A stretch of DNA of 32,000 nucleotides, from assembly GCF_016127575.1 (NCBI RefSeq), contig NZ_CP066018.1, positions 3,390,001 through 3,422,000 of the forward strand, written 5' to 3'. Made by a program: the position numbers and the translations under genes. This document shows, piece after piece, positions 7,179 through 27,644 of the stretch; position 1 is the first letter of the stretch; each line of letters begins with the position of its first letter. Below the pieces are notes generated by a model. The model saw nothing but the letters and a program-made list of their open reading frames with translations, ran no database searches and had not been told where the DNA came from. This DNA comes from Cupriavidus necator. Its GTDB lineage: Bacteria; Pseudomonadota; Gammaproteobacteria; Burkholderiales; Burkholderiaceae.

Positions 7179-7511
7179 ATGAACGATACTCGCGCCGCGC
7201 TCTTGCCGCACAAGGAAGCACTAGCCCGTGATGCCAACACGCTGTTGGCGGATGTACAGGCATTGTTGCGGGATGTTGCCGACGAAGCCGGCGTGGAGAC
7301 CGCGCAGGCACGCGCGCAGCTGAGCGCACGCCTGCACGCGCTCCAGGGCCGCCTCGCCGAGCAACGCCAGGCGGCGCGCATGCGTGTCTCGCAATGGGCC
7401 GACACCACGGATCGCTACGTCCACGCACATCCCTGGGAGAGCATGGGCTCCGTCGCCGCTGTCGCGGCCGTGGCTGGCGCCCTGGTCGCGCTGGCCGTCA
7501 CCCGCCGTTAG
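7179..7511 (+). CDS. DUF883 / ElaB-YqjD-like membrane-anchored stress protein
   Basis: 110 aa. RBS AAAGGAGAA. Long helical N-terminal part, then HPWESMGSVAAVAAVAGALVALAVTRR, the typical C-terminal tail anchor of the ElaB/YqjD/YgaM family. Confidence 0.8.
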   Translation: MNDTRAALLPHKEALARDANTLLADVQALLRDVADEAGVETAQARAQLSARLHALQGRLAEQRQAARMRVSQWADTTDRYVHAHPWESMGSVAAVAAVAGALVALAVTRR

Positions 7512-7542
7512 CGCGGGCACGGCAGGCAGGCTGCTGCAGCCA

Positions 7543-7847
7543 GTGGCCGGTTGCGAAGCCATGGTCGTGTGCACGCTGGACCGTCCGGATGCCAGGCTGG
7601 TGCCGCTGCTGTGGCCCGCTGCCGCAGCCAGGGAAGGTGGCGCCGTGCGGGTCGGACTGGTGGCGCCATACCTCGCGTACATGCGCCAGGACAAGCTCTT
7701 CCCGACAGGCTGCAAGCGGTCGCGGCCGACATTGTCACGTGCGACACCGTTGCGCACCCATCCAACCGCATTCCCGTAGCAGAGCGCCTGGCAGCCGGCA
7801 TCCGGCTGGCACTCCAGGCGCCAGCGGGTTCAGGAGATCCGTCATGA
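7543..7847 (+). pseudogene. prs: Ribose-phosphate pyrophosphokinase (Prs) remnant: N-terminally truncated and internally deleted
   Basis: One frame reads VAGCEAMVVCTLDRPDARLVPLLWPAAAAREGGAVRVGLVAPYLAYMRQDK (7543-7695). This is the Prs signature; compare E. coli VRGGDIFIIQS...[22 protein letters not shown]. From ~7710 another frame reads AADIVTCDTVAHPSNRIPVAERLAAGI, corresponding to the Prs C-terminal ...VVVCDTIP...LAEAI. About 200 central codons are missing. The stop overlaps the next gene's ATG (ATGA, 7844-7847). Confidence 0.6.
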
Positions 7848-8206
7848 ACAAGCTCACAGCGCAGGAAACCGTCTCGCTGGCGGCGCAGCTTGACGCGGAC
7901 GAAGCGCGCATCCATGCCGCCGTTGGTTCCGCCGACACGCCGATGACACCATTGGCGCAGCGTGAGGCGCGGGACGAGGGCGACCTTGCCGACGAAGAAA
8001 TCCTGCAGCGGCAGGATGATGCGATGCTGGAACACTACCGCATGCAACTGGCCGACATCGCCGCCGCGCGGGCGCGGATGCAGCACGGCCAGTACGGCAC
8101 CTGCATCGATTGCCAGCAGCCGATCCCGTTCTCGCGCCTGCAGGCATATCCGACCGCGAAGCGCTGTACCGCATGCCAGCGCCGGCACGAGCAGCTTTAT
8201 GCGTGA
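7844..8206 (+). CDS. DksA/TraR-family C4 zinc-finger protein
   Basis: Track ORF 7394..8206 trimmed to ATG 7844 (RBS CAGGAGA). 120 aa. Coiled-coil N-terminal part, then CIDCQQPIPFSRLQAYPTAKRCTACQ (CxxC-N17-CxxC). Confidence 0.85.
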   Translation: MNKLTAQETVSLAAQLDADEARIHAAVGSADTPMTPLAQREARDEGDLADEEILQRQDDAMLEHYRMQLADIAAARARMQHGQYGTCIDCQQPIPFSRLQAYPTAKRCTACQRRHEQLYA

Positions 8207-8308
8207 CAGTCGGAGGATGCCGCCGAGGGCAACTGAGCGCCTGGCGGGCTGCCACCGCGAAAGCGACGGTCGCCCCCCGGCAGCGGCCGGGAGGCTGGCG
8301 CTGACCGG

Positions 8309-8551
8309 CTAGCGCAGGTCGTACTCGCGCATCATTTCGGTCGTGACTGCCTTGACCGTGGCCAGGCATGCCGGCGGGACAGCGGGGAAGGCGTCGATGG
8401 TCCAGTTGCAGCCGCCGTTGGCAGTTGCGTCGACACGCTGCGGCAACGGGATGTCGCAGTCGCGGCAGGTGTCGCCGAGGTCGGCGTTTTCCTGCAGACG
8501 CCGCAGAATTTCATTGCGGATCTGTTCCGCACTGCCGAGGTTCTTGATCAT
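8309..8551 (-). CDS. Hypothetical 80-aa protein with four Cys
   Basis: AGGAGA lies 7 nt upstream of ATG 8551, and the gene starts 45 bp downstream of the nitroreductase on the same strand. Its composition is non-repetitive and unlike the Arg/Pro/Ala-rich shadow ORFs. Cys sites: CRDC, GGCNW, PPAC. I recognise no family. Confidence 0.6.
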   Translation of the reverse strand: MIKNLGSAEQIRNEILRRLQENADLGDTCRDCDIPLPQRVDATANGGCNWTIDAFPAVPPACLATVKAVTTEMMREYDLR

Positions 8552-8596
8552 GTCGGTGTCTCCTGTTGTCAGGTGGTGGCGATCCGGCCAGGATGC

Positions 8597-9262
8597 CTAG
8601 ACCGGCGCGCTGTCATGCGGAGCCGGACGCCCGATGGTCTGGGACAGGATCGGTTCCTCGTCCTCGTTCAGCGACATATGCTCGGCCAGCTGGCGCCGGT
8701 TAAGCCAGCCGCGCACCACCGCGCCCAGCCCGGCCGAGGCGCAGTAGAGATAGGCGTTCTGGACCATGGCGCCGGCCGCGGCGGCAGCGAAGGTCTCGTG
8801 CAGCTTGGGCGGGACGTCCTGCATCCGGCCATGGTTGGCGACGTAGACCAGGTCCAGCGGCGCCATGCCGACGAAGTCCTGGTAGCCGGTCATGCTGCGC
8901 ACGTCTGCCGCGCGCTTCAGCACCAGGCAATGGTGGATCGGGTCGTAGCGGTAGAGGCCGGCGGGCAGCGCCGCGTAGACGTCGATCACCGCCTCGCCGT
9001 GCGGCGAAGGGGCTGTGCGGCCGCCGCCCTGGGAGCGGTTGACGCCCGCCGCGGCCCACAGCAGCTCGCTCAGCTGCTGCAGTGGCAGCGGCTGCTCGTC
9101 GAACTCGCGGGTGCTCATGCGCTGCCACAGCGCCCCCATCAGCGGCAGGCCATTGGTGCGGTCCGGCTGTGGCAGGGCGATGACCCGCTCGCTCGTGCCG
9201 GAGGCGGGGCGTGGCAGCAGGTCCTTGATGGGCTGGTAGGGGATGCGCTTCAGTTCGTCCAT
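8597..9262 (-). CDS. SagB/ThcOx-type nitroreductase-family protein (paralogue of 2325..2930)
   Basis: Motifs: WQRMSTREF, LLWAAAGVNR, GGRTAPSPHG, GLYRYDPIHH, AGAMVQNAYLYCASAGLGAVV. Start is uncertain: ATG 9262 is chosen, with ATG 9274 and the track start 9313 as alternatives. Confidence 0.8.
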   Translation of the reverse strand: MDELKRIPYQPIKDLLPRPASGTSERVIALPQPDRTNGLPLMGALWQRMSTREFDEQPLPLQQLSELLWAAAGVNRSQGGGRTAPSPHGEAVIDVYAALPAGLYRYDPIHHCLVLKRAADVRSMTGYQDFVGMAPLDLVYVANHGRMQDVPPKLHETFAAAAAGAMVQNAYLYCASAGLGAVVRGWLNRRQLAEHMSLNEDEEPILSQTIGRPAPHDSAPV

Positions 9263-9444
9263 GGGAGCTCGCATTTGTTGCAAAGAGCGGCGCGAGCGCT
9301 CTGCGCATGGCACCGGTATGGACGAATGTAGGCGCTGCCCCCGGCCGTGGATTGCGCTCCGTCAAGCAGCGTCGATGGGGCCTTCCCTGGTGTGAAAGCA
9401 AGGGGTGCTGGCGCTGCTTTAGATGGCGGCGCCGAGCTCTGGCG

Positions 9445-12521: not shown

Positions 12522-14822
12522 TCACTCCGTGGGCGCATCTTCGCGCAGCGCATGGAACAGCTCGTCCTCCTGCGCGCAGTGCAGCCGCAATACGGCCTCG
12601 AGCCCGTAGAGCAGCCGCTGGTACTCCCTGACCCTGCCGGCGTCTGGCCCATCCGGCGGTGAGTCGTCCGCCATCCGCTGCAGTAGCCGGATCACCCGGA
12701 AGATCTCGCGGTGCATCGCGCTCATCGCCGCCAGCGGATCCTCGCCTCCGACCAGCAGCGCGAGTTGCGGATAGAGCTGCGCGTCATCGTGCTGTTCGTG
12801 GGGCAAAAGTGTTCCGCTGAGGGATGCGCACAAGCGGCGCAGTTCCGTGCCCGCGGCGTGGCCAGGCATGGCTGGCAACCTGTCCGCGAGGCTGCGGATC
12901 TGTTCCATCAGCGGCGCCAGCGCGGCGTGCTCCTGGTTCAGGCGCTCGGCGTCGGCCGTGGACAGGCGTTCCGCCGGCACCGACGGGTCGGCGCGCAGGG
13001 CGCGCAGCGCATTGGCAATGACCAGCACATCGATGACCTCCTGCAGCATGGCGCCGGCCAGTGGCGGCAGGTAGCCGAACGCGGCGACCGCCATCGCGAC
13101 GAACGACAGGCCCATGCCGGCCATGGCGCTTTGCACGGCCAGCCGGCGCGACCGGCGGGCGATGCGCACCGCGTCCACCAGCCGGTCAAGCCGGTCCACC
13201 AGCAGCACGACATCCGCGGCTTCCGACGATGCCGCGGCACCTCGTGCGCCCATGGCCACGCCGACGTCCGCGGCGGCCAGCGCCGGTGCATCGTTCACGC
13301 CGTCGCCCACCATCAGCACAGTGCCGTCGTGGCGCGCCGCCTCGATCGCGGCAAGCTTCTGCGAGGGGGTGAGGTTGGCATGGACCTCGGTCACGCCCAG
13401 CATCGCGCCGACGGTCTCGGCGACGTCGAGCCGGTCTCCCGTGAGCATGGCCAGGCGCCGTATGCCCGCCTTGCGCAGCAAGCGCAACGCGCGCGGGGTG
13501 TCCATGCGAATCAGGTCCACGAACTGCAGTGCCCCAACCAGCACGCCGTCGACGGTGACCAGCGAGACCGAGGCGCCTTCGAAGGCCGCGCGCTGCAACA
13601 TGGCCTGGCACCACGGTGGCCCGGCATCGCCGCCGCCGGCAAAGGCGGGCGATCCCACCGCCACCACGTGCTCGCCAACCCGCCCGGCAATGCCAGCACC
13701 GGCGGTCTCGGTCACGCCTGACGGCAGGTCCAGGGCCAGGCCTCGCTCGCGCGCCGCGGTCGTGATGGCTTCGGCGACAACATGCCCGGAGGCCTGGGAC
13801 AGCGAAGCGGCGACGCGCAGCACGTCGGGCGCCGGCCATCCGGGCGCGCTCTCGATGGCCGCCAGGCGGGCCCTTCCGCCCGTCAGCGTCCCGGTCTTGT
13901 CGAAGAAGAGGATGCTCGCCTGCGACAACCTTTCAAGCGCGCCGCCGCCCTTGACCAGCACGCCGCGCCCGGCGCAACGCGACACCCCGGACACAATCGC
14001 CACCGGAACGGCCAGGATCAACGGACAAGGGGTGGCGACCACCAGCACCGCCAGCGCCCGCGCGAGTTCACCACTGGCAAGCCAGGCAAGCCCGGCGACG
14101 AGCAGGGTGACAGGCACCAGCCACAGTGCATAACGGTCGGCCAACCGCGCCGCGGGCGGGCGCTCCGCGCGGGCGGTGCGCACCAGCCTGGCGATGCCGG
14201 CGAAGGTGCTGTCTGCCGCGGTGGTCGCTGCCACCATCTCGAACGGGGTGCCGGCGTTCAGCACACTGCTGCGCACGGTCTCGCCAGGGAGTCGCTGCCG
14301 TGGCAGCGACTCGCCAGTCAGGGCAGATTCGTCCAGCGTCGCCTGGCCCAGCAATGCGCCGTCCACGGGTACGACTTCGCCATGCCGGACCAACAGGCGA
14401 TCCCCCGGACTGACCACATCGAGGGAAACCGCGCGCCATTCTCCGTCCTCGAAGCGGTTGGCGGACTGCGGGGCGCGGCTGAGCAGGGCGGACATCTCCC
14501 GCTCGGAACGGGCCTGCGCATAGTTCTCAATGGCCCTGCCGCTCTCGATCATCAGGGCCAGTACGGCAGCCGCGAGGAATTCGCCAAGCGCCAGCGCCAG
14601 CCCGATCGCCAGCAGCGCCAGGACATCGACGCCCGCTTCCTTCCGGCGCAGCGACCGCACGATGGCGACGATCAGCGCGCCGGCGACGACCAGCGCGCCA
14701 ACCGCCCAAGCGAGCCTCGCGGCGAGCGCTTCGCCGAAGGCAAAAAGCAGCAAGCCAGCGCCCAGCGTGCCGGCCGCGACTGGCAGCAAGCCGAGGTCAA
14801 ACTTGCGAAACCCGATGTGCAT
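12522..14822 (-). CDS. P1B-5-type heavy-metal P-type ATPase with C-terminal hemerythrin (HHE) domain
   Basis: [17 protein letters not shown], and transmembrane TPCP (VVATPCPLILAVP) instead of CPC. There is no N-terminal metal-binding domain. The last ~150 aa carry His/Glu hemerythrin motifs (NQEHAAL, LPHEQHDD, MHREIF, LHCAQEDELFH). Start placed at ATG 14822 (CAGGGGA upstream); the track start 14933 is a GTG without an RBS. Confidence 0.85.
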   Translation of the reverse strand: MHIGFRKFDLGLLPVAAGTLGAGLLLFAFGEALAARLAWAVGALVVAGALIVAIVRSLRRKEAGVDVLALLAIGLALALGEFLAAAVLALMIESGRAIENYAQARSEREMSALLSRAPQSANRFEDGEWRAVSLDVVSPGDRLLVRHGEVVPVDGALLGQATLDESALTGESLPRQRLPGETVRSSVLNAGTPFEMVAATTAADSTFAGIARLVRTARAERPPAARLADRYALWLVPVTLLVAGLAWLASGELARALAVLVVATPCPLILAVPVAIVSGVSRCAGRGVLVKGGGALERLSQASILFFDKTGTLTGGRARLAAIESAPGWPAPDVLRVAASLSQASGHVVAEAITTAARERGLALDLPSGVTETAGAGIAGRVGEHVVAVGSPAFAGGGDAGPPWCQAMLQRAAFEGASVSLVTVDGVLVGALQFVDLIRMDTPRALRLLRKAGIRRLAMLTGDRLDVAETVGAMLGVTEVHANLTPSQKLAAIEAARHDGTVLMVGDGVNDAPALAAADVGVAMGARGAAASSEAADVVLLVDRLDRLVDAVRIARRSRRLAVQSAMAGMGLSFVAMAVAAFGYLPPLAGAMLQEVIDVLVIANALRALRADPSVPAERLSTADAERLNQEHAALAPLMEQIRSLADRLPAMPGHAAGTELRRLCASLSGTLLPHEQHDDAQLYPQLALLVGGEDPLAAMSAMHREIFRVIRLLQRMADDSPPDGPDAGRVREYQRLLYGLEAVLRLHCAQEDELFHALREDAPTE

Positions 14823-15246
14823 GGCGAACCCGATCCCCTGCGTAACTGGCGCCGGTTGCTGGGATACTCCCGCTGATGCCTTCAGGCGATCGCAGATCCT
14901 GCCGCGCTGGCGGCTGCGCAATCCCGGCTGCACGCCGAATCAGGCACTGTGTAATGGTGATGTTAGTCCAACAGGCACCGGGCCGATAATAGCCTCGGCC
15001 GCAGGCAGGGCGCGCCAGCCAGCCCTGGAGATAGTCGATGGCTGCAGGGGCCGCGGTTCGCGGCGCCACGGAGATGATTCGGCACGGCGCGGACCCGCAG
15101 TGGCTGTCGGCGGTACTGCCGTATTCGCTCACTCCTTGATGCACGCGGCGATTACGGCGCATTTTCGGTTCAAATTGCGCTTTGGCCGGTGCCGCCCTAT
15201 ATATTTGGGGGGCGAGAAGCACTCTCAGACAATCATCGTCCATTCC

Positions 15247-16971
15247 ATGAGCAACCCTTTGGCGCCCGCGGGCAAGGTGCAGCCTTCGTCCGAACGTTCT
15301 CACTCCCTTGCCATGGCGATTGGCAGTGTGACGGTCGTTCTCGTCCTCGCGGGGGGATGCTTCTTGATGGCTACCGTCGAATGGTATCGGCAGTTCCTGG
15401 CGCCGTTGGTGCTCTTGACGGGCGCAGGCATCGGGCTCGCCGTGGGACTTTACTGGAACCGGTTGAGGAAGCTTACAGGGAGTAGTGATATCCAACGCGT
15501 GGCGGATAGCGAAGCCCAGTTGGCGGGGATCATCCGATCTTCGATGGAAGCGATCATCACCGTGGACGGTGACCAGCGCGTCGTACTGTTCAATCCCATG
15601 GCAGAAACGCTATTCGCCTGGCCGGCCGAACTTGCAATCGGGCGCTCCCTGAGCGACTTCATTCCCCACCGCTTTCGGGCCGCCCATGCAGAGCATGTGC
15701 GCCGGTTTGGGATCACGGGCGTTTCGGACCGCGAGATGGGACTCCAACGGGCGCTGTGCGCCATGCGTCGGGACGGAAGCGAGTTCCCTATCGAAGCATC
15801 CATTTCACAGATCTCTGTCGGCGAGGCCAAGTTATACACTGTGATGCTGCGCGATATCACCGAACGCGTGCGTGCTGAGGAAGCCCTGCACCGAAGCCTT
15901 CAGCTTGTGAAGGAAAGCGAGGCGCGATTGGCGGGAATTATCCGCTCCTCCATGGAAGCGATCATCACCGTGGACAATGAACAACGCGTAGTGCTGTTCA
16001 ACCCAATGGCGGAGACGTTGTTCGCCTGGCCCGCCGAACTCGCGATTGGCCGCCCCCTCGGCGACTTCATTCCCGAACGCTACCGGGCCGCTCATGAGGA
16101 GCACGTGCGTCGGTTTGGGATCACGGGCGTATCGGATCGTCAGATGGGACGTCAACGGGCACTCTACGCTCTGCGTCGTGACGGCACTGAATTCCCTATC
16201 GAAGCATCCATCTCGCAAACGGCCCACGAAGGCACGAAGCTATATACCGTGATGCTGCGTGATATCACGGAGCGGGCACGCGCGGAGGCGGCCCTGCGCC
16301 GCTCACGGGAAGAACTGCAACAGCTTTCAGATGGGATACTCGCTGCCCGCGAGGAGGAGAGGCGCCGCATTGCACGCGAGCTGCACGATGACCTGGGCCA
16401 GCGCCTGAGCGCGCTTAAGATGGACATGGCTATGCTCGGCGCGGACGTCGATGAGGGCCGTGACACAGCAGGACTGCTAGACGAGATTGGTGCCATAAAC
16501 GGCGTCATCGACAATACTGTTGCCTCGGTCCGACGCATTGCCAGTGACCTACGGCCGGCCTTGCTGGACGAGTTGGGAATGATTCCTGCCATTGAGTGGT
16601 TGGCCGATGATTTTGCCAACCGGTACGGATTGGCGGTGAGCGTGGACGGTGCCGAGGCTGACGTCCCCGCGCAGACGGCAATCGCCATGTTCCGCATTGT
16701 CCAGGAGGCATTGAGCAATGTCGTCCGGCATGCCGACGCGACCACCGTGCATATTCAGCTCACCCAGTCAGAGGGCCAACTTGTGTTGCGGGTGCAAGAC
16801 AATGGGGTGGGCTGGGACAAGGTCTCCTCCGCAAGCGGGCCACGCAAATCGCTGGGACTCCTTGGCATCCGGGAGCGGGCACGCCTTCTGGGTGGCAGCT
16901 TCACCATCGACAGCACTCCCGGCAAGGGCTTTTGCCTAATCGTGCAAATTCCCCACGAAAGGGTGGCCTGA
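15247..16971 (+). CDS. Membrane-anchored sensor histidine kinase: 2 TM, tandem FixL-like PAS, HisKA_3, HATPase_c
   Basis: The 813-aa track ORF is trimmed to ATG 15247, because the upstream part is antisense to the ATPase gene. Two hydrophobic helices with a ~7-aa loop. H-box ELHDDLGQRLSALK is NarX/DevS-type HisKA_3. N/G boxes: EALSNVVRHA, DNGVGW, GLLGIRERA. No RBS is obvious, so the start is approximate. Confidence 0.85.
   Translation: MSNPLAPAGKVQPSSERSHSLAMAIGSVTVVLVLAGGCFLMATVEWYRQFLAPLVLLTGAGIGLAVGLYWNRLRKLTGSSDIQRVADSEAQLAGIIRSSMEAIITVDGDQRVVLFNPMAETLFAWPAELAIGRSLSDFIPHRFRAAHAEHVRRFGITGVSDREMGLQRALCAMRRDGSEFPIEASISQISVGEAKLYTVMLRDITERVRAEEALHRSLQLVKESEARLAGIIRSSMEAIITVDNEQRVVLFNPMAETLFAWPAELAIGRPLGDFIPERYRAAHEEHVRRFGITGVSDRQMGRQRALYALRRDGTEFPIEASISQTAHEGTKLYTVMLRDITERARAEAALRRSREELQQLSDGILAAREEERRRIARELHDDLGQRLSALKMDMAMLGADVDEGRDTAGLLDEIGAINGVIDNTVASVRRIASDLRPALLDELGMIPAIEWLADDFANRYGLAVSVDGAEADVPAQTAIAMFRIVQEALSNVVRHADATTVHIQLTQSEGQLVLRVQDNGVGWDKVSSASGPRKSLGLLGIRERARLLGGSFTIDSTPGKGFCLIVQIPHERVA
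15511..16308 (+). repeat. Tandem in-frame duplication (period 408 bp) encoding the two PAS modules
   Basis: Copy 1 starts ~15511 and copy 2 ~15919. By my hand alignment 104 of 125 aligned residues are identical (83%). Identical 20-24 nt runs include atggaagcgatcatcaccgtggac, cggtttgggatcacgggcgt and ttccctatcgaagcatccat. Confidence 0.85.
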
Positions 16972-17036
16972 TGCGACATGCCTCATGATTGGGGATGGCA
17001 TCGCAGTTGTCCGGAATCAAGCCCCCATGTGCCGGG

Positions 17037-17105
17037 GTAATTCTGGCGATTGTAATTGCGAACGCCGCGACCGGCTTCATTCAGGACGGCAAGGCGGAAA
17101 AAAGC
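17037..17105 (+). pseudogene. Short remnant of a P2-type (CtpF/Ca-Mg-like) P-type ATPase, TM2 region
   Basis: VILAIVIANAATGFIQDGKAEKS matches the very conserved P2-ATPase block ..V..NA.vGFiQE.kAE.al. The similarity is lost on both sides. Only ~23 codons, so low confidence. Confidence 0.35.
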
Positions 17106-17281
17106 CACGGACCGTTTCGGCACCGGCGACGCTACGCCGAATGCTTTGCAGACACTCACTCCATTCTGCTGCTGCAGCGGAACTGCCGTCGCAAGAGCGA
17201 CGGCCGGACGGCAAGGGGCTGGCAGGTTTGCGGTCTGACGGGATTAGTCCGCACGAGGGCCAAACCTTACGGCTAGACCCA

Positions 17282-17842
17282 TCATCCGCCTGGCGCCATC
17301 TTTCCACCCATGCCCGGACCCATCCCCGGCCCCATGCCCGGACCCATGCCCGGACCCATGCCCATGCCCGGGCCCATGCCTTGGTCGTTGGCCATCGTCT
17401 GCATCATTTCCTGCATGAACGCCATGTGACTACCCGCCATGTCTTGGCACATCTGCATTTGATTTGATGGGGCGTTTCCCTTGGCGACTCTCTTGCCAGG
17501 AGCCATACGAGCAGGGCCGCCCATTTTCATCATGTCCTTTTGCATGATGGCCATTGCATCTTGCATGACCTGATGGCGTTCAGCCAAGAGGGCCTGACGC
17601 TCCTCCGGCGTTTTGGCACGCGAAAGCCGCTCTCTGATGGCACGCAGGTGGGCAACCTGGGCGTCCAGCTTTGCATCGCTGGAAACTCCGGGAGTTACGA
17701 CCGGAGCCTTATCTTGCCGCTTTTCAGGATGGTGCTGCTCATGCTCAATGCCGGTAGCCGGCGACGCCGGGAAAGCTGCTGGCGCCCACGCTAGCACGGC
17801 GGCCGCAGTGATAAGGGTAGAGAGGCGATGGTTGGTGGACAT
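17282..17842 (-). CDS. Secreted Met-rich protein with C-terminal (GPGM)n repeat; possible periplasmic Cu(I)/metal-binding or CpxP/Spy/ZraP-like protein
   Basis: 186 aa. RBS AGGAGGA. Signal peptide LITAAAVLAWAPAAFPA|SP. I counted 23 Met in the C-terminal ~105 residues. Tail: GMGPGMGMGPGMGPGMGPGMGPGMGGKM. The function is inferred from composition only. Confidence 0.7.
   Translation of the reverse strand: MSTNHRLSTLITAAAVLAWAPAAFPASPATGIEHEQHHPEKRQDKAPVVTPGVSSDAKLDAQVAHLRAIRERLSRAKTPEERQALLAERHQVMQDAMAIMQKDMMKMGGPARMAPGKRVAKGNAPSNQMQMCQDMAGSHMAFMQEMMQTMANDQGMGPGMGMGPGMGPGMGPGMGPGMGGKMAPGG
17309..17380 (-). repeat. In-frame 12-nt coding microsatellite (CATGCCCGGNCC on the + strand = GPGM), five units plus two 6-nt half-units
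   Basis: Units at 17309-20, 17321-32, 17333-44, 17345-56 and 17363-74. Half-units catgcc at 17357-62 and 17375-80. Confidence 0.85.
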
Positions 17843-17907: not shown

Positions 17908-17921
17908 TTGATTGGGATCAA
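17908..17921. promoter_or_regulatory. Perfect FNR/FixK consensus box TTGAT-TGGG-ATCAA
   Basis: 10/10 match. Centre is 72.5 bp upstream of the Met-rich protein ATG (17842). This fits a class II (-41.5) activator site with a ~30-nt leader. Confidence 0.75.
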
Positions 17922-20755: not shown

Positions 20756-21559
20756 TCACTTCGAAATCGCCCCGCTCAGAAGATGTTCCTCTGCATAAGG
20801 AAACACAACTTCCGGATTAGGGCGAATCAGCTCAGCGTCCTTGTGCGCATAGTGAAGGCGGGTCAGTAGATCCTTGATGACGCTGAGGCGTGCGACATGC
20901 TTGTCGTCGGCGCGCACGACGTTCCATGGCACGATGTCGCTGGTTCGAGCAAACATCTCGTTCCGTGCCTTACTGTATTTCTTCCAAAGCGATACCGCTT
21001 GTTCGTCAATGGGGCTGACTTTCCACTGTTTTAGCGGGTCCCGGCGGCGCTCTTCGATGCGCTTCTTCTGTTCGGCCTTGCTGATGTCAAGGTAGTACTT
21101 GATAAGACGAATTCCGGAACGCACGAGCATCCGTTCGAACTCTGGGACACTTGCCATGAACTCCTCATGCTCGTCCTTGGTGCAGAAGCCCATCACATGT
21201 TCCACACCGGCCCGGTTGTACCAACTGCGATTGAAAAGGGTGAACTCGCCGGCCGCAGGCAGCTCGGCCGCATAGCGGCGGAAGTACCAGGAGCCTCGGT
21301 CACGGTCGGATGGCTTCCCCAGTGCGACGACGCGCGTTTCACGCGGACTGAGGTGTTCGACAATGCGCTTGATGGTCCCATCCTTCCCAGACGCATCCCT
21401 TCCCTCAAAAATCACCAGAATCCGGTCGCTGCAGGAAATGAAGTGCTTCTGTAGTTTGACCAGCTCGATTTGAAGCAGGTGGAGATTCTCCTCATAGCTG
21501 TCATGGGAGAGGGCGCTTGCCTCGGATGGAGCCGTCTTGCTACTTGTCTTCATTTTCAT
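20756..21559 (-). CDS. ppk2: Polyphosphate kinase 2 (single-domain PPK2)
   Basis: 267 aa. RBS GGGAGGTG. Walker-A-like FEGRDASGKDGTIK, followed by FNRSWYNRAGVEHVMGF and the lid region. Confidence 0.9.
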   Translation of the reverse strand: MKMKTSSKTAPSEASALSHDSYEENLHLLQIELVKLQKHFISCSDRILVIFEGRDASGKDGTIKRIVEHLSPRETRVVALGKPSDRDRGSWYFRRYAAELPAAGEFTLFNRSWYNRAGVEHVMGFCTKDEHEEFMASVPEFERMLVRSGIRLIKYYLDISKAEQKKRIEERRRDPLKQWKVSPIDEQAVSLWKKYSKARNEMFARTSDIVPWNVVRADDKHVARLSVIKDLLTRLHYAHKDAELIRPNPEVVFPYAEEHLLSGAISK

Positions 21560-21990
21560 GGTTCACCTCCCTTGAGTCGGGCGCATCGGGTGGGAAAGGG
21601 TGGGGCTTTCCAGGTGAAAGCGGGGTAACTTTTTCGTTGAGCAACAGCTCCAGCGAAGGGCGGTCTACGACCTCCTGTTCGAGCAGTAGCTTTGCCAGCG
21701 CGTCTGGCTTGTGCCGGTTTGCCAGCAATGTTTGCTTCACCCGCTGACTGGCGTCGCCCAGAATCGTCCGCACTTCTGCATCAATGATTTGCGCAGTACT
21801 CTCGCTGTACTCTTTGCGTTGCCGAGGCATTGGCAGCTTCGAGGTCCTGGACCAGATTGGGGTCGTTGACCCGAAGCGTGGAGAAGGGGTGGTCTCCCTT
21901 TCCCTGGCGCAACATCTCTTCGACCTGTGGCTTGGGGAGCAGAGTCTCAATGCCAGTGGTGACACGAGCTCGTAAAGAGCTGTGGCGCAA
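21540..21990 (-). pseudogene. ftsH: C-terminal remnant of an FtsH-family protease (frameshifted, N-terminally truncated)
   Basis: One frame reads RKEYSESTAQIIDAEVRTILGDASQRVKQTLLANRHKPDALAKLLLEQEVVDRPSLELLL, the FtsH C-terminal helical region (compare ..SDETARIIDQEV...L...ETID). An upstream piece, VTTG...GDHPFSTL...PNLVQDL, is in another frame. The AAA and zinc-protease cores are absent. Confidence 0.6.
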
Positions 21991-22020
21991 GGACTTGGAG
22001 TCATATCGCCATTCTTGGTA

Positions 22021-22287
22021 TCAGGTCTCTCCTTGAAGGCTGTTGTGTAACCATGCAAAGAATGCCCCGGCAGCGAAGAACCACACCGCAAACACAAAGG
22101 CTGGATAGATGATGGACCACCACGATACTGATTCGCCGGTCTGAAGGCGCCGGAAATCGAGCCCGTGAAAGAGCGCGTTCATGAAATTCATGAAGGGCTC
22201 AGGAAGAACCATCCAGACGAGCGTGCATAGAACGTAGAACAGCACGACCGTGGCGGATAGCGTCAAACCAGTCTTGAAGGGTTTCAT
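22021..22287 (-). CDS. Small multi-pass membrane protein (resembles what RefSeq labels DUF5676; recalled from memory)
   Basis: Track ORF trimmed to ATG 22287 (GGAGG 6 nt upstream). 88 aa with hydrophobic segments LTLSATVVLFYVLCTLVWMVL and IIYPAFVFAVWFFAAGAFFAW. Confidence 0.6.
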   Translation of the reverse strand: MKPFKTGLTLSATVVLFYVLCTLVWMVLPEPFMNFMNALFHGLDFRRLQTGESVSWWSIIYPAFVFAVWFFAAGAFFAWLHNSLQGET

Positions 22288-26346: not shown

Positions 26347-27531
26347 CTAGAAGACCGCTACCGTGCCATAGACCAGCTCATTGACCAAGGCAGGAAGCTG
26401 CGCCAGCTGTAGCGTCGCGAGTTCACGAACTTGCTGCTCCTGGGCGCTCGAGAGGCCGCGCTCGGCCACGACATCAATGGCAAACAGTTGGGGCTGGTCG
26501 ATGGGGCGTCCAATTCCGGAGAGAAGCCGGACGACGACTTCATCCGCGCCATCCACGCTTGCCTGAATATGAGAGGCTAACCGGTGGGCGAGCACGTTGT
26601 AGAGCTTGCCGACATGTGACGCCGGGTTCTTGCCCGCTGCGGCCTCCAGCGACATTGGCCGATAGGGGGTAATCAGGCCATTGACCCGGTTTCCGCGGCC
26701 GACCTGGCCGTCATCACCATGCTCAGCACTTAAGCCAGTGACCGTCAGGTAAATCCCGCTTTCGTCGCAAGCATCCCGGCGATCGAGGGTATTGATTGCA
26801 ATCTCACAGTCGGTGCCGATGTGCTCGGCCAGATACGACCCAATCCGGCCCTTGAGGATGAAGTACTCATCGACGCCTTGGACGCATCGGTCGACAAAGG
26901 CCAGCGCAAGAGTGAGACGGTGATGCGCACCCAGCCGACTCCCCATCACCTTGTAATCGAGGCCCGCCGCCTCAAACATTCCCCTGTCGGCACGTGAGCG
27001 CAGAAGGTCGGCAATCAACAGCACCGCTCTTTCAAGCGATGAGAGTGGCGCATAGCCGACGCCAAAGGATGTGTCATTGGACAGCGAAAGAGACGCTGCA
27101 TTGGTCACGCGCCGGAGGTTCGGGGCCGAGGGGCGGAGGATTGGCTCGATCCGGATGTCATTGCCAATGTCGCCCAAGGATGTCGCCAGGTACTCGCGAA
27201 TGGCCTGCTCGACAACTAGCTCGGCCTTGGCCGACGGAAGTTCGGTAACAGGGCCGGATACTATCAACCGCGTTGAGCGCAGCACTTTGCCACCGCCGAA
27301 CTTTGGCGCGCTCATGCCGCCGATGAGTAGCGCCTTGTCCAGATTGAAGTGCTGGACTGCGCCATAGGCTTCGAAGTATGCGCGGCACAAGGCGCGAGCC
27401 GCAGCTTCGACAGCCCCATCGCATAGGCTATCGGGATGTCCGATGCCCTTGTGCTCGCACATTTCCGTCTGCTCACCTCGCCATGACGGCCCACGCGAGA
27501 TAGCAATCGCTATGTTCTCCATGATGGTCAT
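26347..27531 (-). CDS. Archaeal-type S-adenosylmethionine synthetase (methionine adenosyltransferase, MJ1208/PF01941-like)
   Basis: 394 aa. RBS AAGGGGG. Motif EHKGIGHPDSLCDG near the N-terminus, with length and overall pattern as in archaeal-type MAT. It does not resemble bacterial MetK. Confidence 0.75.
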   Translation of the reverse strand: MTIMENIAIAISRGPSWRGEQTEMCEHKGIGHPDSLCDGAVEAAARALCRAYFEAYGAVQHFNLDKALLIGGMSAPKFGGGKVLRSTRLIVSGPVTELPSAKAELVVEQAIREYLATSLGDIGNDIRIEPILRPSAPNLRRVTNAASLSLSNDTSFGVGYAPLSSLERAVLLIADLLRSRADRGMFEAAGLDYKVMGSRLGAHHRLTLALAFVDRCVQGVDEYFILKGRIGSYLAEHIGTDCEIAINTLDRRDACDESGIYLTVTGLSAEHGDDGQVGRGNRVNGLITPYRPMSLEAAAGKNPASHVGKLYNVLAHRLASHIQASVDGADEVVVRLLSGIGRPIDQPQLFAIDVVAERGLSSAQEQQVRELATLQLAQLPALVNELVYGTVAVF

Positions 27532-27630: not shown

Positions 27631-27644
27631 TTGACGCGAATCAA
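27631..27644. promoter_or_regulatory. Near-consensus FNR/FixK box TTGAC-GCGA-ATCAA
   Basis: 9/10 match. Centre is 106.5 bp upstream of the SAM synthetase ATG (27531) and 46.5 bp upstream of the ATG (27684) of the decayed formate/nitrite transporter gene. A weaker box, TTGCC-TAGC-ATCAA, follows at 27660-27673. Confidence 0.6.

Follow-up and report, generated by a model that had tools for sequence, protein, structure and literature searches.

The described systems that come closest to the one considered here are FixL-FixJ (Bradyrhizobium japonicum, S. meliloti, Burkholderia), DosS (DevS)/DosT-DosR of M. tuberculosis, NreB-NreC of Staphylococcus and Bacillus, the PAS protein EcDOS/DosP, and a kinase-regulator pair of Burkholderia cenocepacia. 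We compare with these a sensor histidine kinase of Cupriavidus necator, encoded in a 32,000-nucleotide stretch of contig NZ_CP066018.1 (positions 3,390,001 to 3,422,000 of the forward strand, referred to as the window), which carries two PAS modules in tandem and has no response regulator gene beside it. On balance we favour a reading in which this is a functional kinase with two heme-PAS modules, belonging to a split two-component system within a hypoxia island that resembles B. cenocepacia's lxa (low-oxygen-activated) locus.

Anoxic persistence depends on the lxa locus, the regulation of which has tentatively been attributed to FixLJ and Anr (PMC3721108, PMC12071387). It holds two uncharacterised two-component pairs and the motif described as the lxa motif; BCAM0289/BCAM0288 and the Anr-like BCAM0287 are mildly induced at low oxygen, and a parallel between the gene contents of lxa and the DosR regulon has been drawn (PMC3721108).

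Kinase layout and the closest described systems

The kinase gene has an intact reading frame with the full set of catalytic motifs. The encoded protein is identical to CAJ93086.1 of C. necator H16 across the 534-residue annotation of that entry (PAS/PAC sensor kinase, nothing further) and differs by one residue from the version in another C. necator strain, while the window is 100% identical to chromosome 1 of H16-type C. necator over 21.6 kb. We favour the start at 15247 over the 534-residue and 610-residue database gene calls because the resulting N-terminus, MSNPLAPAGK, is also found in the orthologues of Cupriavidus sp. WKF15 and C. neocaledonicus. The features of the gene are listed below; the proximal heme-ligand His of B. 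japonicum FixL is taken to be His200, in our own numbering.

15247-16971, + strand: sensor histidine kinase gene, 574 residues (open reading frame intact)
15301-15477, + strand: membrane hairpin, transmembrane helices at residues ~19-43 and 48-77 with an outer loop of 4-5 residues (AlphaFold2 secondary structure; hydropathy)
15505-15912, + strand: PAS unit 1, residues 87-222, predicted FixL/DOS-type heme-PAS, the faster-evolving copy (repeat, Pfam, tree, FixL alignment)
15685-15687, + strand: His147 codon, aligned to FixL His200 (FixL alignment)
15913-16320, + strand: PAS unit 2, residues 223-358, predicted FixL/DOS-type heme-PAS, groups with single-PAS relatives (repeat, Pfam, tree, FixL alignment)
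16093-16095, + strand: His283 codon, aligned to FixL His200 (FixL alignment)
16357-16563, + strand: HisKA_3 dimerisation and phosphotransfer (DHp) domain (Pfam; alignment to DesK; invariant ELHD motif)
16384-16386, + strand: codon of the phospho-acceptor His380, within HisKA_3
16681-16959, + strand: HATPase_c catalytic domain (Pfam)

Pfam finds two PAS domains, HisKA_3 (PF07730; residues 371-439) and HATPase_c (479-571), so confirming the output domain named in the initial annotation. Neither hydropathy nor the AlphaFold2 secondary structure gives any sign of a periplasmic sensor domain, again as that annotation had stated. In the AlphaFold2 model (51 homologues; mean predicted local distance difference test score 78), the order is membrane hairpin, PAS1 (102-203), linker helix, PAS2 (238-339), a long helix running into the DHp domain, and the catalytic domain; the model is an apo form and its FG loops have low confidence. 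The product is very probably a membrane-tethered cytoplasmic kinase with two FixL-like heme-PAS modules.

Among the described systems, the PAS units are nearest in sequence to the heme-PAS of FixL, of which they keep the proximal His, Arg206, Arg220 and Ile238. Further similarities to FixL-FixJ are a cytoplasmic sensor on a membrane anchor, a regulator of the NarL/FixJ superfamily, and FNR/FixK-type boxes in the surrounding regulon. The differences are substantial: the transmitter is of the HisKA_3 class whereas FixL has HisKA (PF00512), both PAS units are predicted to be of the heme type whereas only one of the two PAS domains of B. japonicum FixL is a heme PAS, the distal pocket is polar with a Met, and the regulator is not adjacent. 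The kinase scores 119 bits against the NCBIfam FixL model NF041777 (cut-off 850) and the regulator of the family 80 bits against the FixJ model (cut-off 255), with no fixJ adjoining.

With DosS/DosT-DosR the kinase shares the combination of HisKA_3 and HATPase_c, a NarL-type partner and a predicted heme sensor. By analogy, the arrangement of two paralogous kinases for one regulator, one of the kinases being an orphan (DosT in mycobacteria), may also be common to both, and Usp, alpha-crystallin/HSP20, nitroreductases and cation ATPases recur in the DosR regulon. In contrast, heme is bound by a GAF domain in DosS/DosT while the present kinase has PAS and no GAF; DosS and DosT are soluble, not membrane-anchored, and occur in a different phylum, and H16-type genomes have deleted one of the two kinases. 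As the DHp class is not that of FixL, the FixL score is below the cut-off, and the presumed heme domain is PAS and not GAF, we regard the kinase as neither a FixL proper nor a DosS/DosT.

NreB-NreC is similar in having a cytoplasmic PAS oxygen sensor, HisKA_3 and a NarL-type regulator, but NreB uses a Cys-ligated Fe-S cluster and the PAS units of the window have one Cys or none. EcDOS/DosP gives the second-best PAS match after FixL and has a His-ligated heme-PAS with a Met in the FG-loop region, although its output is a cyclic di-GMP phosphodiesterase. An invariant Met occurs at His+17 in the family of the window kinase. Met95 of EcDOS lies at His+18, and in a hand alignment to the EcDOS sequence it is two residues away from the family Met; because the two do not align, His/Met heme ligation in the family is only speculation.

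A homologue from B. cenocepacia is 56% identical, has PAS and HisKA_3, is followed by a NarL-type regulator gene and an FNR-type gene, and is located among genes for Usp, alcohol dehydrogenase, nitroreductase and acetate kinase. The kinase, regulator, Anr-like order matches BCAM0289-0287 of the lxa locus, an identification made by gene order in a strain other than J2315. Unlike the kinase of the window, this homologue has one PAS and an adjacent regulator.

The PAS modules and their age

PDB sequences were searched with three queries, namely the full-length protein, PAS1 by itself and a profile of 20 sequences, and each time the top matches were FixL of B. japonicum and S. meliloti, EcDOS/DosP, and 10jx, presumed to be a heme-PAS protein as well. 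In the profile search this heme-PAS group has expectation values (E) of 1e-26 to 1e-17, while the next PAS of any kind is found at 1e-6. The units thus resemble heme-PAS domains of solved structure more closely than any other PAS and sit in the FixL/DosP clade, which bears out the family assignment that the initial annotation had made by eye. They align with B. japonicum FixL at 29-32% identity and essentially without gaps. HMMER places residues 147 and 283 opposite the proximal His with a single 1-residue gap over ~126 residues, so that the proposed heme-ligand positions stand, as does the Arg of the FG loop (Arg168 and Arg304, aligned with Arg220). His147 and His283 are invariant across 51 two-PAS homologues. 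Residues of B. japonicum FixL compare as follows with the two window units and with 228 modules from 120 homologues.

His200 (proximal ligand): His147/His283 in the window; His in 228/228 modules
Arg206: Arg/Arg; Arg in most modules
Arg220: Arg168/Arg304; Arg in 71/73 kinase-proximal and 21/73 distal units
Phe232: kept in both window units; 226/228, invariant outside triple arrays
Ile238: kept in both window units; 221/228, invariant outside triple arrays
His214: Arg/Arg; Arg in 228/228
Ile215: Glu/Gln; mostly Arg or Gln in the family
Ile216: Met/Met; Met in 226/228
Leu236: Ala/Ala; Ala in 221/228, invariant outside triple arrays
Tyr203: His/His; His in most modules, giving an HxxH motif

As judged from these alignments, the fold and the proximal side are FixL-like and the distal pocket is not; because of the latter, ligand chemistry is not transferable from FixL. 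Neither a LOV Cys motif nor an NreB-type Cys cluster occurs in the PAS modules (PAS1 has one Cys, Cys171, and PAS2 none). A cofactor call from Foldseek was abandoned, as the full-length model matched WalK, LOV-HK, NifL, FixL and DosP alike among PDB structures and so did not discriminate between cofactors. We predict that the PAS units bind heme b.

The tandem arrangement is clear-cut: Tandem Repeats Finder reports a period of 408 with 1.9 copies at 15520-16301, and the units agree in 104 of 125 aligned residues, or 108 of 136 residues and 310 of 408 nucleotides over the full unit, reproducing the in-frame 408-bp duplication described previously. It had been described as recent, and this did not hold up. 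The two units differ by a synonymous divergence (dS) of 1.21, with a ratio of nonsynonymous to synonymous rates (dN/dS) of 0.11, and are as deeply diverged from each other as the kinase is from the orthologues of other species in the genus. At third codon positions identity is only ~50-65% throughout the unit, even where the proteins are identical. Recent gene conversion, considered for the near-identical N-terminal halves of the units, is ruled out, as third positions are equally diverged there.

In a neighbour-joining tree of PAS modules, the Cupriavidus PAS1 units form one clade, the PAS2 units together with the single-PAS Cupriavidus proteins form a second, and the single PAS of Ralstonia falls outside both. 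This topology implies that the duplication is older than the divergence of C. necator, C. taiwanensis/neocaledonicus, C. laharis and others, and indicates a single PAS duplication in an ancestral Cupriavidus before speciation. Double and triple PAS arrays in other Burkholderiales are of independent origin. The array is still labile: C. necator WP_436221846.1 (P0148) and a protein of Cupriavidus sp. YR651 (P0153) have one chimeric unit, in which the first ~23 residues of PAS1 are joined to the rest of PAS2 by an exact in-frame loss of 136 residues. Such a copy-number polymorphism is consistent with unequal recombination between the repeats. Look-up of the single-PAS protein P0039 of C. taiwanensis returned no record.

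The partner regulator and the surrounding island

No response-regulator gene occurs downstream of the kinase or elsewhere within the 32-kb window, in agreement with the initial annotation. Across the family, 41 of 60 loci have a gene with Response_reg and GerE domains directly after the kinase; among the 39 loci at >=40% identity the figure is ~35. Loci with an adjacent regulator include those of Cupriavidus sp. WKF15 and C. laharis, where the homologues have two PAS modules, Cupriavidus sp. BIS7 and sp. 30B13, three Burkholderia species and many metagenome-assembled genomes. A regulator thus follows the kinase in most close relatives and not in the orthologues of this gene: those without it are in C. 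necator, Cupriavidus sp. YR651 and C. neocaledonicus, lineages that differ at dS 1.6, and no remnant of a regulator was seen beside the orphan kinase in any of the three.

A sister kinase with a single PAS is still paired in Cupriavidus sp. TA19, where its gene shares 4 bp with the start of a NarL-type regulator gene and the pair is surrounded by genes for Usp, beta-CASP RNase, acetyl-CoA synthetase, BON, CBS and HSP20 proteins. CAJ93120, the corresponding regulator of H16, is identical to the paired one in 211 of 215 residues, belongs to the same 90% cluster and has the same gene context, and no kinase gene is adjacent to it. In an H16-type record, the kinase (2,425,883-2,427,487) and the regulator (2,459,463-2,460,110) are on the same strand ~32 kb apart, the regulator being upstream of the kinase, ~17 kb past the left end of the window. 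The kinase is most likely one half of a split two-component system, and the NarL/LuxR-type regulator of its family is encoded in the same genome. The initial annotation had proposed a partner that was either lost from this locus or encoded elsewhere; it is the second of these that applies, and what has been lost is another kinase.

This loss can be read from a DNA alignment, in which positions 8044-9268 of locus L089, essentially the whole sister kinase gene, are missing with clean breakpoints from the H16-type locus L094. The final 22 codons of the deleted gene are still found directly upstream of CAJ93120 (L094, 9930-10000) and are 91% identical to the intact gene. The alignment indicates that CAJ93120 formerly had its own adjacent single-PAS kinase, removed by a clean deletion of ~1.2 kb in H16-type genomes. 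In C. neocaledonicus, kinase and regulator are 13.4 kb apart, and an ISL3-family transposase gene (L098, 3855-5075) is located just upstream of the regulator, at the position that the paired kinase occupies elsewhere; a 16-residue match to the kinase upstream of this regulator (50% identity, E 0.06) is suggestive only. The loss of the paired kinase in C. neocaledonicus was probably independent of that in H16. Both kinases seemingly occur in one C. necator assembly, as MGX6570351.1 and MGX6564761.1 share an accession prefix, though the assembly is unconfirmed.

Both halves are under purifying selection, as judged by their substitution ratios. For the kinase, dN/dS is 0.14-0.15 against three orthologues (dS 0.08, 1.0 and 1.6), which together with the intact frame speaks against the suspicion that it might be a pseudogene. 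For the regulator, dN/dS is 0.037 against both the paired TA19 copy and the C. neocaledonicus copy, a value that applies even to a pair of lineages in which the regulator has no kinase gene beside it. That two such lineages have kept the two-PAS kinase would be expected if both kinases serve one regulator. The DHp helices of the orphan and the paired kinase are nearly identical, including the faces that dock the regulator, and the differences cluster in the loop between the helices.

Signalling could then proceed as follows. Loss of oxygen from the heme(s), binding of nitric oxide (NO) or carbon monoxide (CO), or a redox change would act as the trigger and would alter the helix that connects PAS, linker and DHp, so switching the balance of kinase and phosphatase activity. 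The phosphoryl group would pass from His380 to the distant CAJ93120, and expression of hypoxia genes would be adjusted. The two-PAS kinase would be the sole input left for CAJ93120 in H16.

Kinase and regulator are at opposite ends of an island of ~50 kb, made up of the window's left half and the regulator locus. It encodes two nitroreductases, BON proteins, a Cpn60 paralogue, Usp, HSP20 and CBS proteins, an ADP-forming acetyl-CoA synthetase, P1B and P2 ATPases and an FNR-type regulator. Four TTGA-N6-TCAA boxes were found where 0.31 would be expected by chance; there is none in front of the kinase. In gene content and in its boxes, the island corresponds to the B. cenocepacia locus with its lxa motif, and islands with Usp, HSP20, nitroreductase and FNR genes house kinases of the family in Cupriavidus as well as in B. 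cenocepacia. The FNR-like protein of the island has the CX2CX5C cysteine motif of true FNR/Anr and may, on account of this motif, sense oxygen directly. The kinase may act above this protein, alongside it or below it. K-mer and dyad counts in 19 intergenic regions yielded no shared motif beyond the FNR boxes and no candidate site for a NarL-type regulator, and scans for inverted repeats, promoters and terminators in the ATPase-kinase spacer and the downstream region yielded nothing above chance. The boxes and the genes next to the kinase are as follows.

17908-17921, + strand: exact FNR/Anr (lxa-type) box TTGATTGGGATCAA, ~70 bp upstream of the gene for a 186-residue protein
11876, 26189 and 27631: other FNR boxes (box scan)
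12522-14933, - strand: heavy-metal (P1B) ATPase with a C-terminal hemerythrin domain, divergent from the kinase; most gene callers start at 14822
17004-17112, + strand: variable junction 3' of the kinase, with a remnant of transmembrane segment 2 (TM2) of a P2-type ATPase at ~17022-17120 (tblastn; blastn breakpoints)
17282-17842, - strand: 186-residue secreted Met/His-rich protein with a (GPGM)n end; no Pfam match

The membrane domain of the P1B ATPase carries a TPCP motif. This hemerythrin-fused ATPase adjoins the orphan kinase in three Cupriavidus lineages, and between C. necator and C. neocaledonicus the two genes have changed places without an inversion. The gene of the Met/His-rich protein, which is also beside the ATPase in C. 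neocaledonicus, has tandem 12/18-bp repeats at 17306-17380 that encode the (GPGM)n repeats; a metal-binding periplasmic protein is our guess.

At the junction, homology to 96%-identical relatives ends at 17003 and restarts at 17113; the window has 109 bp in between, and these relatives have a 5.8-kb ABC-transporter/peptidase cassette instead. The P2-type ATPase fragment reported earlier proved real though weak, with 25 residues (17031-17105) that are 56% identical to the TM2 region of a P-type ATPase with a PEGL motif (E 1e-6, in a very small database) and a second match of 33 residues at 48% identity to another P-type ATPase. An origin of the remnant from the intact P2-ATPase gene beside the H16 regulator was considered and rejected, there being no significant protein or DNA match.

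Several cassette-sized indels distinguish the island between close strains. Relatives of 96% identity (L005) lack a segment at 8222-9363 that contains an 80-residue reading frame and the gene of the second nitroreductase. At ~7465-7841 (+), a phosphoribosyl pyrophosphate (PRPP) synthetase-like gene shows internal deletions of ~150 and ~470 bp against an intact 303-residue gene in 96%-identical relatives and is probably a pseudogene. An FtsH-like protease is reduced to its C-terminal Peptidase_M41 part at 21540-22097 (-); in the Burkholderia lxa locus the ATP-dependent Zn protease is complete. This betaproteobacterium also encodes, at 26347-27531 (-), an archaeal-type S-adenosylmethionine synthetase (PF01941), and an FNR-like box with one mismatch (27631-27644) stands before the gene.

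Alternative readings and implications

One possible explanation for an orphan kinase in this position is a recently duplicated tandem-PAS kinase that has lost its adjacent regulator here and heads the FixK/FNR-box regulon. The gene is indeed followed by no regulator but by a rearrangement hot spot with a P2-ATPase remnant, FNR boxes are enriched in the window, and a regulator adjoins the two-PAS homologues in Cupriavidus sp. WKF15 and C. laharis. However, the dS between the units and the module tree put the duplication before speciation, the orphan state is common to C. necator, YR651 and C. neocaledonicus (dS 1.6) with no regulator remnant beside the kinase, the FNR-like protein of the island has an Fe-S cysteine motif of its own, and no FNR box precedes the kinase. 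The recent timing and the local loss are largely refuted, and we consider this explanation as a whole quite unlikely. It is also improbable, if somewhat less so, that the PAS units are free of heme and serve for another ligand or for dimerisation only, in which case the kinase would be no gas sensor. Sequence cannot prove the binding of a cofactor, several distal-pocket residues of FixL are replaced, the FG loops are modelled at low confidence, and Foldseek cannot tell a heme PAS from LOV or other folds. Against this, heme-PAS structures and every other PAS are 11 orders of magnitude apart in the profile search, the proximal His is present in all modules, the Arg residues that partner the propionates are also conserved, and the Cys motifs of LOV and NreB are absent.

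Alternatively, the kinase may be functional and yet serve a different regulator, or act mainly as a phosphatase or modulator and not as the kinase of CAJ93120. The pairing with CAJ93120 is derived from family-level gene adjacency and the similarity of the DHp helices, and the H16 genome was surveyed in part. We give little credence to this possibility, as the orphan regulator is strongly conserved in both lineages that lack an adjoining kinase, both of these keep the two-PAS kinase, and the docking helix faces of orphan and paired kinases are nearly identical. Least of all do we believe that the gene is a decaying leftover of a broken two-component system without present function. Several truncated genes and deletion scars in the H16 island would fit such decay, but the kinase has an intact frame with its catalytic motifs, a dN/dS of ~0.15 over short and long divergences, and only one residue that differs from the protein of another C. 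necator strain.

A functional two-heme-PAS kinase of a split system, which we favour, has itself to be set against several observations. The distal pocket is unlike that of FixL (Ile215 to Glu/Gln, Ile216 to Met, Leu236 to Ala, His214 to Arg), and the second module is dispensable, as some strains have just one chimeric PAS. The island shows decay in its truncated PRPP-synthetase-like and FtsH-like genes. The survey covered part of the H16 genome, so further kinases or regulators of the family are possible, for example on chromosome 2. Finally, when the literature was searched by topic and under guessed H16 locus tags, no study came up of the kinase or of its family, which is large (5,745 database proteins match at E<=1e-10, a count inflated by generic PAS and kinase matches) and apparently unstudied.

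Tentatively, the kinase can be seen as a member of a Burkholderiales-wide and so far unstudied class, in which FixL-like heme-PAS sensors with DosS-class transmitters may control “dormancy” islands of the lxa type by way of a NarL-type regulator. How many heme modules a kinase has (1, 2 or 3) could be an evolvable dial of sensitivity to O2, NO or CO, with kinases being swapped or lost while the regulator is kept. If true, proteobacteria would possess a counterpart to the DosS/DosT-DosR switch of mycobacteria, and H16 would be its natural minimal case, with one two-heme kinase and one regulator 32 kb apart. The same kinase family is present in the lxa locus of B. cenocepacia. An orphan kinase, an orphan regulator beside which a deleted kinase has left its scar, and strains that are one heme-PAS module apart together provide a natural experiment in the evolution of two-component systems. 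C. necator H16 is also a major platform for gas fermentation and bioplastics, where the key process variable is oxygen supply, and knowledge of the sensor that controls its low-oxygen island would be directly useful there.

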